From: a virus
Lineage: Duplodnaviria > Heunggongvirae > Uroviricota > Caudoviricetes
Direction: 5' to 3' (one strand)
IMG/VR virus record: IMGVR_UViG_2850808358_000012
Location: 1-37,841 of that record
Length of the DNA: 37,841 nucleotides
Translations under genes and position numbers: made by a program
Notes under the pieces: model-generated
Seen by the model: only the letters and a program-made list of their open reading frames with translations
Databases searched by the model: none
What the model was told of the DNA's origin: nothing
Shown here: positions 26,777-31,558 of the stretch, in pieces
Layout: every line of letters begins with the position of its first letter
How positions within the stretch are numbered: position 1 is the first letter of the stretch

Positions 26777-26800
26777 ATAACCGGCAGGATGCCGGTTATT
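26777..26800. promoter_or_regulatory. Palindrome overlapping the C stop codon; candidate C-binding site or terminator ahead of lys
   Basis: AATAACCGGC-aggat-GCCGGTTATT. Confidence 0.35.
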
Positions 26801-27218
26801 TCTGGCTTTCAGGTGAGAACAGATCAGGCTGATGACGTCGTGTATGCAGCTTTCTCTGGCGGGCAATAATCTGGTAGATCTGCGGCTGGGACAGGCGGTA
26901 CTGGCGACGCAGTTCTTCCATGTTACGACCATTGAACTGGCAGTAAAGCAAATCGTCGCGTAACGCGGTCAGGATCGTATCGCCGCAGGGGATGTAAAAC
27001 TGCCGCCCCCCCAGAAAACAGGACAGGGCAACGGCCTGTTTACGGGCAAGCTCACGGGGATTGCTGACGTTCTGGCGTTTCAGTTCGTTTTCCAGAACAT
27101 CAATCAGATCAACCACTGAACGGGGCCAGCGTGATTCCAGTTCCGGGGCCGGGATGTTATCAATATGCCCGATTAACTGGCGAATTGCCGGATCGTGTTC
27201 AAATAAATCATGCTGCAT
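26796..27218 (-). CDS. C: Late gene transcription activator C
   Basis: 140 aa; paralogous to the mor product (shared ...GG.Q.YIP.G...FNGRN..EL...Y motif); position upstream of lys. Confidence 0.8.
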   Translation of the reverse strand: MQHDLFEHDPAIRQLIGHIDNIPAPELESRWPRSVVDLIDVLENELKRQNVSNPRELARKQAVALSCFLGGRQFYIPCGDTILTALRDDLLYCQFNGRNMEELRRQYRLSQPQIYQIIARQRKLHTRRHQPDLFSPESQK

Positions 27219-27229
27219 ATTTTCCCCGG

Positions 27230-27349
27230 TTAACAGACAAAAAGATACACCACGGCACTGATGGTTATCAGAACCACAAGGGCAATCACTTTTATCGCAT
27301 TAATCAGCGTGGACGGCCCGAAACATTCATCACTGAATTTTCTGTACAC
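27230..27349 (-). CDS. Candidate 39-aa hydrophobic peptide upstream of C
   Basis: GTG start with AAGGA 8 nt upstream; product ...INAIKVIALVVLITISAVVYLFVC has one predicted TM helix. Below the ORF-track length cut-off. Confidence 0.3.
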   Translation of the reverse strand: MYRKFSDECFGPSTLINAIKVIALVVLITISAVVYLFVC

Positions 27350-27605
27350 AATATTTTTCCTTATAACGTTGACAGTGGTGAAGAATTTCCGGCATATCAA
27401 CTGACTGCCAGCCTTTCATGTAATAACTGCCGTGGGTGCCATCATGACCGGTATAGTCGCGGGGCGCAGGCCGTGGCCCACCGGCGACACGGTGCAAAAC
27501 CTCCTGACGCAGCCGCTCACGTCTGCCAAGATGAAAGGATGCATTCCAGCCTTTACCCATGATGATTTCCCCCGGTACGGTTATTCATCACAGGATATTG
27601 AGGAC

Positions 27606-27632
27606 GTAAAAAAAGCCGGATTAACCGGCTTT
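27606..27632 (-). terminator. Intrinsic terminator at the end of the early operon (after mor)
   Basis: Minus strand: AAGCCGG-ttaa-CCGGCTT followed by TTTTTTT, immediately after the mor stop. Confidence 0.65.
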
Positions 27633-27637
27633 ACTGT

Positions 27638-28027
27638 TTACAGAAGTGAGGGCTGGTACTGGCGGTATTTCAGCCGTCGCATCCGGCGAATGGCCTTGTA
27701 AACCGTATTGAAAGTGACACCATAACGGGTGGTCAGTTCGCTGACGTTGCGACCGTTAAAATCATTCCAGATACGCAAATCCCGAATCAGCGAGTCCAGA
27801 ACCTGACCGCGTGGAATGTAGACCTGACCGCCGCCCAGATGCTTACAGATAGCCACAACAATCTCCAGTGAATGGGCAGGATCAACACCCAGCCGGGACA
27901 ATTCCCCGCGTAGTAAATCGTTCAGCTCCGCCAGCAGTGCCGGAAAGCGTGACGTATCCTCTGCGGGATTGTCAAGATGTGCCAGGATGGTGTCATCCTG
28001 CAAATCACCAAATAAATCTTCCGTCAT
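27638..28027 (-). CDS. mor: Middle operon regulator Mor
   Basis: 129 aa, paralogue of C, last gene of the early operon. Confidence 0.8.
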   Translation of the reverse strand: MTEDLFGDLQDDTILAHLDNPAEDTSRFPALLAELNDLLRGELSRLGVDPAHSLEIVVAICKHLGGGQVYIPRGQVLDSLIRDLRIWNDFNGRNVSELTTRYGVTFNTVYKAIRRMRRLKYRQYQPSLL

Positions 28028-28575
28028 TGTGCCATCCTCCGTGTCTTTCTGGCATGGGCATAAGCCGCCGTCATGGCATCATAGCCGCGCAGTTCACGAC
28101 CAGACGGACTGACCGGCAATGGAATCCCGTGACGGGAAAAGGCTTCACGAATACAGCGGATGTGCCACTGTTTCAGGGTTTCAAGCACAACTTGCAACGA
28201 TTCTCCGTGGCACCAAGCCAGCGTGGAAACACCCTGTCCGCCATTACGTTTCGCCGTCAGGCGCTGAACATATTTATCCAGCGCCACATCACCGCCATCG
28301 GTAATAAAACCGTCTTCTGCCATCTGCTGCCAGACTTTGTATACCTTCTCGCGGGGAGTGACATGCCCCTTAAAGCGGCGACGTGGATGTTTATTCAGCT
28401 TCTTAAAGCCGCGTTCTTTCATGGCATCGAGCACCTGTTCCAGTTGCGTAACCGTAAGCTCGCGGCAACTGGTTTTGCCCGTTTTCTGCATCAGAAAAGC
28501 GCGGTAAGTGTCGTCGTCGAGTTGTAGCTCCCGACGGGCGACATGGATTAATTTAATCAGGGATGTGCGATTCAT
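28024..28575 (-). CDS. gemA: GemA-like early protein
   Basis: 183 aa immediately upstream of mor; N-terminus MNRTSLIKLIHVARREL... matches Mu GemA as I recall it. Confidence 0.7.
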   Translation of the reverse strand: MNRTSLIKLIHVARRELQLDDDTYRAFLMQKTGKTSCRELTVTQLEQVLDAMKERGFKKLNKHPRRRFKGHVTPREKVYKVWQQMAEDGFITDGGDVALDKYVQRLTAKRNGGQGVSTLAWCHGESLQVVLETLKQWHIRCIREAFSRHGIPLPVSPSGRELRGYDAMTAAYAHARKTRRMAQ

Positions 28576-28593
28576 GATCGTACCTCCGGAAAG

Positions 28594-28615
28594 AGGCGGT
28601 GCTGCAACACCGCCT
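28594..28615. promoter_or_regulatory. Perfect 8-bp inverted repeat with 6-bp spacer upstream of the gemA RBS
   Basis: AGGCGGTG-ctgcaa-CACCGCCT. Confidence 0.35.
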
Positions 28616-28644
28616 GAATTTACACATCAATCAGAGAGGATTTT

Positions 28645-28911
28645 ATGGAAAATAATGTACAACCTTATGATGTTGCAGGTTATGCGATTGCATCAGCACT
28701 GGTGCGCCTTCTGGTGAAGAAGGCGATCATCACCGCAGAAGAGGGCCAAGCCATTTTCAGCTCTTCAGCAGAGATTTTAAAAGATGCGCCTGCAATGAGA
28801 ACAAGCCGCCGCGAAAAACTGCAACTGTCAAAGATCATGGAAGACATTATCAGTTCGTTAGACCCAGATGCTGACGGATCTCAAAAGCCTCAAACACATG
28901 AGCGTCAGTAA
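28645..28911 (+). CDS. Hypothetical 88-aa protein on the opposite strand inside the early region
   Basis: Strong SD (GAGAGGA 5 nt upstream of ATG); AT-rich; 3' end overlaps the convergent 28850..29167 ORF by 62 nt. Confidence 0.45.
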   Translation: MENNVQPYDVAGYAIASALVRLLVKKAIITAEEGQAIFSSSAEILKDAPAMRTSRREKLQLSKIMEDIISSLDPDADGSQKPQTHERQ

Positions 28912-29167
28912 CAATATCCTGGTCTGATAACCCCAGCCTGCGGCGGATGTACTCCTCGCGGGCTGTTTCATTTTGCAGTGCCACTAATGTTTCCAGACGA
29001 TTCATTTCGCGGTTGATAATGTCACGAACTTCTCTGGCAGTGAGAGCGTGCTTAATACCATATTCAACGATAGCGCGAACACGTTCCAGCATCCTTTTTT
29101 CAGCCATGACGTTATCAATATTAAGGGGAGTAAATTTAGTTTCATTATCCATATTATTCACCTTCAC
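28850..29167 (-). CDS. Hypothetical early protein
   Basis: 105-aa ORF, AT-rich. Confidence 0.5.
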   Translation of the reverse strand: MKVNNMDNETKFTPLNIDNVMAEKRMLERVRAIVEYGIKHALTAREVRDIINREMNRLETLVALQNETAREEYIRRRLGLSDQDIVTDAHVFEAFEIRQHLGLTN

Positions 29168-29336
29168 AATTCATGCACGCCGTGTCATCGCCCATATCGC
29201 AGTGGTTGCATTTCAGCCCGCCACAATGAGGGCACTCTTTCAGATATTCAGGGGCTTCATTACCGCAGGTCGGACATGCCTGTTTCACCGTGGTGAATGC
29301 CCCCAGCCACGAATACGATGTTTCATTGTTTTCCAT
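29154..29336 (-). CDS. Small double zinc-ribbon protein
   Basis: 60 aa with four CxxC pairs (CPTC, CPHC, CNHC, CMNC). Confidence 0.5.
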   Translation of the reverse strand: MENNETSYSWLGAFTTVKQACPTCGNEAPEYLKECPHCGGLKCNHCDMGDDTACMNCEGE

Positions 29337-29856
29337 TGTTTACCTCCGCCTGTTTTTGCGCCCGAATAAATTCGTCAGAAAGGATTTCAGTCATGCGGCC
29401 TTGTGCGGGTGTCATCCCCGTCATGACGTAAACCACATCACCAACACGGAACCACTGGAGCGGCCCGAATATTGTTGCGCTGAAATCCAGTCCCAGTGCG
29501 GGTAAAAGAGCGTCTGTGCGGGCGTAAGTGACCGGAATATTCTCCTGCCATATTTTCGCCAGCTCTCTTGCCTGCTCCCTGAGATGAGCAGGTATCCGCG
29601 AAGTTCTGGGCCTGCAACTGTTACCTGATGCGGGCCGTTGTACGGTCCACAGCTCCCGCGAGAAGGGGCGCTCATCCCCCGAAAAATTCACGCCATGAAA
29701 ATGACGCCCACCAATACCTGTACTGAATACTGACCGGCAACCATAGCCCAGAACCTTATCAAGATGGCGGGCTTCTTCGCGTAGTTTCAGGCAGTCCGCC
29801 ATAAACTGCTCCCACGCCAGCAGTGCTGCGGGATTTGACGTTTTAAAAAACATCAC
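29323..29856 (-). CDS. Hypothetical early protein
   Basis: 177-aa ORF. Confidence 0.5.
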   Translation of the reverse strand: MMFFKTSNPAALLAWEQFMADCLKLREEARHLDKVLGYGCRSVFSTGIGGRHFHGVNFSGDERPFSRELWTVQRPASGNSCRPRTSRIPAHLREQARELAKIWQENIPVTYARTDALLPALGLDFSATIFGPLQWFRVGDVVYVMTGMTPAQGRMTEILSDEFIRAQKQAEVNNGKQ

Positions 29857-30383
29857 GCCACCTCCTGTGCTGCTTCGGGAGCCGTTGAGAAATCAAGAAT
29901 GAGATAGCGCAGGACGTGGTCGGTGATATTCCAGCCACTGGAACCACAAATAAAACGCCCCAGCCGGATATCGATATAAGCCATCACAAAACGGGGCATT
30001 CCCTGTTTGCACATTTCGTCATCCACTTCCGCAACGATGTAAACCGACTCGCAGGTCAGTACGCCTGTTGCAAATTCTTTTGCCAGTGCCGGAATGGCAT
30101 TGCCTTCCAGCCAGGGCAATGAGCGGCGGAAGGAACACCACGCGGCATCATCAACAGCAGGCTGCTCAGTTGCGTTTCGTCTTACAGGCTGCTCTGTACG
30201 GGGACGCGGTACGTCGTAAAAACCATTAAGTTCAGTCAGCATTCCGGCATCAACCGCATCACGCAGGAAGTACACCATTGCGGAGGATGGCATCTGCATT
30301 TTTTCAGCCAGAACCCCGCAGGTCAGGCGTCCGTAAGCCCGTAATAATGTGCTGACACCATTCAGAACTTTTGCATCAATCAC
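29853..30383 (-). CDS. Hypothetical early protein
   Basis: 176-aa ORF. Confidence 0.45.
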   Translation of the reverse strand: MIDAKVLNGVSTLLRAYGRLTCGVLAEKMQMPSSAMVYFLRDAVDAGMLTELNGFYDVPRPRTEQPVRRNATEQPAVDDAAWCSFRRSLPWLEGNAIPALAKEFATGVLTCESVYIVAEVDDEMCKQGMPRFVMAYIDIRLGRFICGSSGWNITDHVLRYLILDFSTAPEAAQEVA

Positions 30384-31033: not shown

Positions 31034-31558
31034 TTAAATACCGGCTTCCTGTTCAAACGGAATAATGGAAAAATCTTCAATTCCCGATTTAACCGTAATT
31101 CCGGCAACACCTGCGACCGCTTTCGGTTCCAGTAAAATCGCTTCCTTGTTGATTTCCTGCTTCGTGCGAATAAAGCGTTGCAGGCCAAGACGCTCCAGCG
31201 TTTCCATCACTGCATCCATACCACGAATACTTACTGATGGCGGGCGTTGACGCCATGACACATCGCCGGTGACAAGATTTGCTGTCTTCACTTTGCCGCC
31301 GTTCGTCAGTTCGTCGCGGTTCGCTTCACACCATCCCTGAACGCCTTTTGAAAGGGTTTCAATATCGGTTTTAATCGGTGCAATCCGGGCTGCAAATTTC
31401 TCCGTAATTTCCGCGATGGCATCATTCATTTCCGTTTCCAGACGTGATGCTTCGCGCTGTAAATCCCCGATGCGTTTAATATCGGTAATCACCGCATCGC
31501 GGTTTTGTGGCACATAAGCCGCTGCGGCACTTTTGATACGTTTTGCTGGTTTAGCCAT
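31034..31558 (-). CDS. gam: Host-nuclease inhibitor Gam (Ku-like DNA-end binding protein)
   Basis: 174 aa; MAKPAKRIKSAAAAYVPQNRDAVITDIKRIGDLQREASRLETEMNDAIAEITEKFAARIAPIK... is near-identical to Mu Gam as I recall it. Confidence 0.9.
   Translation of the reverse strand: MAKPAKRIKSAAAAYVPQNRDAVITDIKRIGDLQREASRLETEMNDAIAEITEKFAARIAPIKTDIETLSKGVQGWCEANRDELTNGGKVKTANLVTGDVSWRQRPPSVSIRGMDAVMETLERLGLQRFIRTKQEINKEAILLEPKAVAGVAGITVKSGIEDFSIIPFEQEAGI

Follow-up and report, generated by a model that had tools for sequence, protein, structure and literature searches.

The window analysed here is a stretch of 37,841 nucleotides (nt) of IMG/VR record IMGVR_UViG_2850808358_000012, a Mu-type prophage that lies in reverse orientation, with its Pe early operon on the minus strand. 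Between two genes of this operon, gemA (gp16; 28024–28575, minus strand) and gp14 (E15; 28850–29152, minus strand), an open reading frame (ORF) runs in the opposite direction. This ORF, gp15 (Mup15; 28645–28911, plus strand), encodes 88 amino acids (aa) from an ATG start and is the subject of the present analysis. gp15 and gemA are divergent, with start codons 69 nt apart, and gp15 is convergent with gp14, their 3′ ends overlapping by 62 nt, which correspond to the last 20 codons of gp15. gemA is annotated in the Mu records and its product matches the Pfam GemA family (E 1e-31); gp14 belongs to phrog_6075 and has 100 aa from the ATG used in the Mu records, or 105 aa (28850–29167) if counted from a GTG at 29167. 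The original prediction, made from the letters of this stretch, had described an 88-aa plus-strand ORF with a strong Shine–Dalgarno sequence that fills a gap of 275 bp in the minus-strand early genes and overlaps the 3′ end of a convergent 105-aa ORF by 62 nt. The ORF listing confirms this arrangement; the gap, from 28575 (start of gemA) to 28850 (stop of gp14), measures 274 nt, and the Shine–Dalgarno sequence is AGAGAGG at 28633–28639 (plus strand), 5 nt before the gp15 ATG.

This very ORF is already present in RefSeq NC_000929, as the complementary-strand gene Mup15 (gp15, NP_050619.1), and is therefore a rediscovery of catalogued Mu gene 15 and not a discovery. Region 28500–29400 is 97.7% identical at the nt level to bacteriophage Mu (AF083977, NC_000929) and 97–99.5% identical to E. 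coli Mu-type prophages, Shigella phage SfMu and Yersinia-infecting Mu-like phages. The E. coli strains W, KO11FL, LY180 and S17-1 are among those that have this prophage region. Comparison of gp15 with the Mu locus by tblastn gave 98.9% aa identity, with one differing residue (Q35 against K), and the gene occupies the same slot between gemA and gp14, on the same strand against the early operon and with the same overlap, as in NC_000929; it is thus the same gene, in a prophage that is unlike Mu elsewhere, for example in its shorter mor–C interval. gp15 also matches phrog_8747 over its full length (residues 1–88 of 88, E 4.7e-60). The 1991 left-end record M64097 gave the ORF as a putative ‘F-134’, E. 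coli genomes annotated with the PGAP pipeline include it, and the SfMu record names it SfMu_16, while a literature search found no paper on Mup15/gp15 of Mu. The comparison with the Mu early region that had been proposed with the original prediction thus recovers the plus-strand ORF in Mu itself, but as a gene annotated since the Mu genome paper rather than as a new one.

Conservation of the ORF was assessed across related phages and prophages, with IMG/VR and GTDB contigs surveyed by means of GemA as an anchor (90 loci). About ten diverged lineages (E. coli, Shigella, Salmonella, D108 and IMG/VR contigs) keep an open ORF of 79–119 aa in the same slot and on the same strand at approximately 60% nt identity, with aa identities to the window protein that range from 53 down to 16%. 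Among these are an 88-aa ORF in a diverged E. coli prophage (66% nt and 53% aa identity, ungapped), an 86-aa ORF in Salmonella Mu-like prophages, a 79-aa ORF in a Mu-like phage embedded in a Shiga toxin 1 (Stx1) phage, and a 119-aa reverse-strand ORF in D108 (locus L007, GQ357916; 1346–1705, plus strand in the locus) that belongs to phrog_38610 and is absent from the GenBank annotation; the survey adds five further lineages with a gp15-type ORF. The spacing between the gp15 and gemA ATG codons stays at 66–73 nt across lineages, and an A(G/A)AGG motif is found 7–10 nt 5′ of the gp15 ATG in the six lineages checked, where the flanks have diverged.

Four lineages could be aligned: the Mu-type window, the diverged E. 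coli prophage and two from Salmonella. In these, the gp15 frame has a ratio of nonsynonymous to synonymous substitution rates (dN/dS) of 0.2–0.4 and contains no stops, whereas each of the other five frames of the interval carries 1–7, and it ranks first of the six frames in aa identity and BLOSUM score. The ORF is therefore conserved in related prophages, one of the two points on which the original prediction had allowed itself to be refuted. Codon usage was scored with a model built from 23 long genes of the window phage; the log-likelihood ratios, in bits per codon, were +0.38 for gp15, +0.39 for gp14, +0.29 for mor and +0.21 for gemA, while in the non-overlapping part of gp15 the remaining five frames all scored below zero. 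A common core is matched by phrog_32893 in Mu gp15 (E 5e-4), in the Salmonella protein (E 2e-5) and in the D108 ORF (E 5e-7), which ties even very divergent versions into one family. These comparisons make it very probable that gp15 is a real protein-coding gene.

The two reference records of the reference phage Mu nevertheless disagree on the coding strand at this position. The current GenBank record AF083977 lacks gp15, and AAF01092, now in version 2, is a 55-aa product named ‘Mu_54’, whose ORF (28680–28847, minus strand) is antisense to gp15 with coinciding third codon positions. Were Mu_54 the true gene, the 88-aa ORF would be its antisense shadow. Curators annotated Mu_54 in AF083977, it lies on the operon strand, and its ATG follows the gp14 stop by 2 nt, a layout typical of coupled genes; the coincidence of third positions also gives it a periodicity in common with gp15 and a lowish dN/dS, so that periodicity and dN/dS alone cannot separate the two. 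They are told apart by their stop codons, by how similar the aa sequences are, by how well the start is kept and by codon usage, all of which favour gp15 as the gene and Mu_54 as the shadow. Over the aligned 66 codons the Mu_54 frame contains 1–3 stops in every lineage; in Salmonella it is open for 42 codons only and lacks an ATG; neither its start nor its end is conserved (55 aa vs 61 aa vs none); and D108, the Stx type and other lineages have no counterpart. Its codon score is +0.03 bits per codon, against +0.38 for gp15, and its aa identity and BLOSUM score fall below those of the gp15 frame in every pair. We regard Mu_54 as hardly credible, and on these comparative grounds the conflict settles in favour of the RefSeq gp15 model, with the current GenBank Mu_54 model to be judged wrong.

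A reading in which neither ORF is translated and the interval is non-coding control DNA (a gem promoter or 5′ untranslated region) would fit the promoter annotation that AF083977 places there, the lack of a detectable gp15 promoter and the few gene callers that report gp15 (about 11 clusters in 5.8 billion proteins), but would leave unexplained why about ten lineages, at some 60% nt identity, keep a frame of 79–119 codons free of stops together with its ATG and Shine–Dalgarno sequence, why dN/dS is well below 1, and why a dedicated terminator lies downstream. The likelihood of this reading is negligible.

That terminator, of the intrinsic (rho-independent) kind, is predicted at 28934–28975 (plus strand), where a hairpin (28934–28965) that begins 22 nt 3′ of the gp15 stop, within the gp14 reading frame, is followed by the T-tract TTTCATTTTG (28966–28975). 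The calculated folding energy is −21.3 kcal/mol on the plus strand (z −2.5) compared with −17.9 kcal/mol on the minus strand, where the T-tract is absent, and TransTermHP predicts the same hairpin in AF083977. All 11 lineages examined have a hairpin after the gp15-type stop, and of the 10 nt that follow it 6–8 are T; folding favours the gp15 strand over its complement in 10 of these lineages, by up to 12.5 kcal/mol, owing to strand-specific G⋅U pairs. When the 11 lineages are placed in an ungapped alignment, 94.5% of cells are paired, compared with 37–51% in slid controls, and the stem includes three pairs with compensatory double changes and four that vary through G⋅U. The compensating stem changes of D108 alter gp14 residues (A-R-E-E-Y-I-R-R-R-L vs A-H-N-N-I-V-C-R-E-L). 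Together these features provide good evidence that a gp15-strand transcript is made and ends at the gp14-internal hairpin, its own predicted terminator. An Rfam search over 28300–29400 returned no matches, and the one match to the promoter consensus, on the early strand inside gp15 (28801–28774), was set aside because the diverged E. coli lineage does not preserve it.

A second hairpin, AGGCGGTG-N6-CACCGCCT (28594–28615, minus strand), lies centrally between the start codons of gp15 and gemA. It is followed by CTTTCC (28593–28588) and then by the gemA Shine–Dalgarno sequence, and the whole element spans 28588–28615. The stem is nearly invariant and the loop variable, with two compensatory pairs in locus L064 and one in PhiR68_1; the early-strand T-run after it reads CTTTCC in Mu, is T-richer elsewhere and reaches TTTTTTTT in one Salmonella prophage (Sal16). 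Because this T-run stands directly before the gemA Shine–Dalgarno sequence, the hairpin is terminator- or attenuator-like on the early strand. It occurs in 27 of the 27 gp15-type loci of the survey, as well as in deletion derivatives and PhiR68_1, and is absent where co-directional genes or a DUF2513-like reverse-strand gene abut gemA. The element looks like a terminator or attenuator, a 5′ stem or stabiliser of the gem transcript, or a module boundary. Its dyad is found once in the window, which led us to reject a repeated operator, and sigma-54, leaderless and class-II-activator readings of the dyad were dropped for one of two reasons: an unsuitable spacing, or the leader that a conserved Shine–Dalgarno sequence requires. 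The AF083977 record annotates a ‘semi-early promoter’ across 28591–28657.

These signals raise the possibility that gp15, as a protein and/or through its transcription, is a local regulator or gate at gemA–mor that stabilises lysogeny or times middle transcription. A divergently encoded regulator would act at the 69-bp control region between gemA and gp15; a gate would consist of the convergent gp15 transcription unit plus the hairpin before gemA, and would restrict read-through into mor from Pe, or from leaky Pe/Pe* in lysogens. Such a role would accord with the strict 66–73 nt spacing of the gp15 and gemA starts in all lineages, with a conserved dyad that sits centrally between them and co-occurs with gp15-type loci, and with a T-run, up to TTTTTTTT in Salmonella, right before the gemA Shine–Dalgarno sequence; the ‘semi-early promoter’ that AF083977 annotates across the interval and the low-level transcription from Pe/Pe* in lysogens (PMC3820752) point in the same direction. 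The hairpin, however, persists without gp15 in PhiR68_1 and the deletion variants, and its stem covaries in L064, as expected of an RNA structure and not of a sequence-specific operator. gp15 itself is acidic (pI 4.3–6.1 in the family) and has no recognisable DNA-binding domain or fold, plaque-forming phages that lack it exist, and purifying selection at the protein level implies that the product matters and not the act of transcription alone. We therefore consider a regulator or gate rather unlikely.

Evidence on dispensability comes from a natural deletion of 223 bp (28630–28852), bounded by ATCA repeats, in the Yersinia phages vB_YpM_3 and vB_YpM_23 and in E. coli JCKP02. It removes the Shine–Dalgarno sequence, the start codon and 68 codons of gp15 and leaves gp14 and the gemA hairpin intact; as it occurs in plaque-forming phages, gp15 is not needed for lytic growth. 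Comparison of D108 with the window gave aa identities of 97% for GemA and 93% for gp13 but only 34% for gp14 and 16% for gp15, thus indicating that gp14 and gp15 were exchanged as a single cassette between near-identical flanks. The cassette extends from the hairpin upstream of gemA, by its position the putative left boundary, to the gp14/gp13 junction. The original prediction had proposed an accessory module that also took in the adjacent zinc-ribbon gene, gp13. The accessory character stands, given that gp15 is present, absent or replaced among close relatives and has its own predicted terminator; gp13 belongs outside, since the cassette exchanged between D108 and Mu consists of gp14 and gp15, while gp13 and gemA stay 93–97% identical.

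Other rearrangements affect the same pair of genes. In the IMG/VR locus L035 (about 1180–1428), a deletion has removed gp15 and gp14 together; what is left of gp15, its first five codons, is joined to the antisense strand of the gp14 5′ end/gp13 region. In L016 (Salmonella Aberdeen; 4236–5444), the gp15 homologue is interrupted at its 3′ end by a gene for a 402-aa IS256-family (Transposase_mut) transposase, which takes the place of the C-terminal tail and separates gp15 from gp14. One way to read such joint behaviour is that gp14 and gp15 form a coupled module, either as interacting partners or as a toxin/antidote-like or exclusion pair, with antisense cross-regulation of their mRNAs over about 130 nt of the gp14 end. 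The joint replacement between D108 and Mu (34 and 16% identity between flanks at 97 and 93%), the combined loss in L035, the position of the gp15 terminator inside gp14, and the invariable presence of a convergent gp14-type partner at gp15-type loci, with overlaps of 20–62 nt, would all follow from it. Physical overlap alone would nonetheless force co-inheritance, and the 223-bp deletion keeps gp14 without gp15 in viable phages, so gp14 is not toxic alone; moreover, no defence or toxin–antitoxin model matches, with PADLOC returning nothing for gp15 and a weak match (0.005) for gp14. A coupled module is accordingly very unlikely in our estimation.

The position of gp15 is itself variable. Across the 90 GemA-anchored loci, 27 carry a gp15-type gene and 16 an unrelated reverse-strand gene of 134–138 aa, with co-directional genes or deletions in the rest. 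The 134–138-aa product (‘MKIDYDE...’) is encoded at about 1020–1467 (minus strand in the locus), with only some 31 nt, and no hairpin, between its start and the ATG of gemA (loci L018, L019, L023–25, L037–38, L042, L046, L052, L060, L090–91, L093, L096 and L099). It gives sub-threshold DUF2513 matches, and some carriers have a GemA that is 96–98% identical to that of the window. Homology of this DUF2513-like gene to gp15 was rejected on the basis of an hhalign probability of 6.9%. The alternative occupants indicate that the site just upstream of gemA is a variable slot that has repeatedly hosted reverse-strand genes.

Among 5.8 billion proteins the gp15 family forms about 11 clusters at 90% identity, and a set of 1.8 billion contains 6 representatives of it. 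Its named hosts are E. coli, Shigella and Salmonella, together with Yersinia-infecting phages, and across the collections searched it is limited to enterobacterial Mu-like phages. A word-indexed protein search with gp15 retrieved only relatives of at least 95% identity, exhaustive HMMER reached about 50% identity, and profile searches with enlarged gp15 alignments added the D108 type only; a search of a one-genome-per-species collection gave nothing, and an HMMER match to the 1438-aa repeat protein P0006 was dismissed as spurious. Judged from these comparisons, the family is small and fast-evolving.

Family members have 79–119 aa and are acidic to neutral (pI 4.3–6.1). They have in common a core of about 45 aa, [YF]-D-[VIL]-A-[GA]-[YF]-x-φ-A-[SG]-x-L-φ-x-x-L-φ-x-K-G-φ-I-x-x-x-E-[AG]-x-x-I, which in gp15 covers about residues 8–45 and consists of two helices joined by a K-G-(I/L)-I-T-x-x-E turn, followed by a variable acidic tail. 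An AlphaFold2 (AF2) model of gp15 has helices at 8–25 and 31–45 with a predicted local distance difference test (pLDDT) score of 77–86, then less confident helices and a disordered tail. The 119-aa ORF of D108, the ORF of the Stx-phage-embedded phage and the 79–91-aa ORFs of IMG/VR contigs, all related to phrog_32893, keep the slot, strand, gemA spacing and Shine–Dalgarno sequence of gp15, as well as the convergent overlap with a gp14-type gene, the embedded terminator and the core of about 45 aa. They are 14–25% identical to Mu gp15 and differ from it in their C-terminal tails and, in D108, by an N-terminal extension; several also contain a second motif, L-x-K-L-W-D-S, that is absent from Mu gp15.

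The K-G-L-I-T-x-E-E turn between short helices is similar to that of SHOCT domains (PF09851 clan; PF22746, PF20612), a domain type without an established function (PMC3581485). Scores include values of 12.6–12.8 against a threshold of 24, most members have no match, and the window protein has none; with every score below its gathering threshold, SHOCT membership was not assigned. No signal peptide or transmembrane segment was seen in gp15 by inspection, and no DNA-binding domain or fold (helix–turn–helix or winged helix) was found in Pfam, NCBIfam or Foldseek searches of PDB and BFVD. For gp14, a single-sequence AF2 model has three helices (pLDDT 76) with no fold match in PDB. The homology searches and structure prediction suggested with the original prediction thus supplied family identities (phrog_8747 for gp15, phrog_6075 for gp14 and phrog_5584 for gp13) but neither a functional match for gp15 nor a PDB fold for gp14.

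The semi-essential region of Mu is largely uncharacterised, and low-level transcription from Pe/Pe* takes place in lysogens (PMC3820752). Within it, gp15 is on balance best read as a genuine, dispensable, moron-like accessory gene that is independent of Pe and available in the lysogen. As the gene points against Pe and carries signals of its own, its transcription would not depend on Pe, and gp15 would therefore be available when Pe is repressed or not yet dominant; the window of expression would be one in which Pe is silent or weak, that is, the lysogen or the period before full early transcription, and convergent transcription from Pe would turn gp15 down in lytic growth. Expression mainly in the lysogen is a plausible but somewhat tentative extension of this proposal. 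The product would be small, acidic, helical and cytoplasmic, and would most likely bind another protein, with gp14 or a host factor as obvious candidates; an enzyme or a classical DNA binder is not expected.

Morons typically have their own promoter and terminator and often lie in opposite orientation. Like them, gp15 is a small accessory gene opposite the lytic operon that overlaps an early gene, has its own predicted terminator and is polymorphic for presence and absence. A partial parallel exists in the Pseudomonas transposable phage Fc02, where olg1/sie1 and gene 10, which are reverse-strand, overlapping and transcribed in the lysogen, exclude phages (PMC9936078). The Fc02 genes, however, adjoin the repressor and have demonstrated lysogen transcription and exclusion, whereas gp15 has no sequence similarity to them and no recognisable promoter.

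Several observations weigh against a moron-like, lysogen-available gene. The principal gap is the promoter: a consensus scan of the window region found no credible gp15-strand promoter, and a position weight matrix (PWM) found no sigma-70-like promoter within 260 nt upstream of gp15 in five lineages, the best upstream scores being 4–7.5 while the whole window holds 60 sites that score at least 8. The gp15 promoter may be activator-dependent or of an atypical kind. A literature search for transcriptome data on gp15 in the lysogen found none, and the GC content of gp15 is not distinctively moron-like. gp15 is absent from many Mu-like phages, so its role is not central, and it is missing, as described, from the current GenBank record of Mu. 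On the protein side, gp15 has no match in Pfam, NCBIfam or PADLOC (nor do its relatives in PADLOC), a sequence-profile search of PDB gave nothing below E 0.29, and Foldseek found nothing in PDB and only Mu's own entry, Q38493, in BFVD. The overall pLDDT of the AF2 model is 65, corresponding to only moderate confidence, and the only hint of a known domain is the match of one family member to PF22746 (E 0.0014; 18.6 bits against a gathering threshold of 27).

A bolder proposal combines gp15 and the two opposed terminators on either side of it, the early-strand hairpin before gemA and the gp15 terminator within gp14, into a convergent-transcription switch before gemA–mor, or sees in the cassette a new, very small system for exclusion or defence in the lysogen. 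With a switch, gp15 transcription and/or protein in the lysogen would block leaky Pe/Pe* read-through into mor, and strong Pe transcription after induction would silence gp15 and open the gate. We consider both versions distinctly unlikely, and the moron-like accessory gene remains our preferred reading of gp15.

The remaining genes of the region follow the Mu order. Upstream in the early operon, all on the minus strand, are gp13 (E14; 29154–29336), gp12 (29323–29856), gp11 (29853–30383) and gam (31034–31558); on the far side of gemA are the early-region gene mor (27638–28027) and the phage gene C (26796–27218), also on the minus strand. The adjoining 60-aa gene had been described as a double zinc ribbon, and it is indeed Mu gp13, with four CxxC motifs, weak zinc-ribbon matches in Pfam and membership of phrog_5584. 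The gp13 zinc ribbon also matches the last 57 residues of the 231-aa family phrog_6418 (E 4e-33), and so occurs a second time in phages, at the C-terminal end of a longer protein. The claim that the segment is AT-rich holds in part: the GC content of 28576–29340 is 0.468, below the 0.523 of the whole window, but 18% of windows of that size do not exceed this value, which makes it unremarkable.

The mor–C interval (27219–27637) has 419 bp and a single ORF of 76 aa (27330–27560, minus strand), and resembles that of SfMu-type prophages, whereas Mu has E18, E19 and gp20 (792 bp) there; the window phage is therefore a Mu/SfMu mosaic and not Mu itself. SfMu (L009, 1850–2158) and many E. coli prophages (e.g. 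L004, 2090–2398) have an additional gene of 309 nt between gp14 and gp13, which is a 304-bp insertion relative to Mu and to the window. Two Salmonella loci (L012 and L013; 3052–3387, plus strand in the locus) contain a 111-aa reverse-strand ORF, without a family match, between a 63-aa gene and the gemA stop, so that gemA is flanked there on both sides by reverse-strand insertions.

To the existing annotation of gp15 this analysis adds a homologue that the D108 record leaves unannotated, the outlines of the wider gp15 family, a covarying predicted terminator embedded in gp14, and a variable reverse-strand slot before gemA–mor. If the switch or exclusion proposal were true, the sole reverse-strand gene of the Mu early region would be regulatory or protective and would have been missed by 40 years of Mu genetics. 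As they stand, the findings on gp15 concern an unexplored corner of the Mu semi-essential region and reveal no new kind of system.

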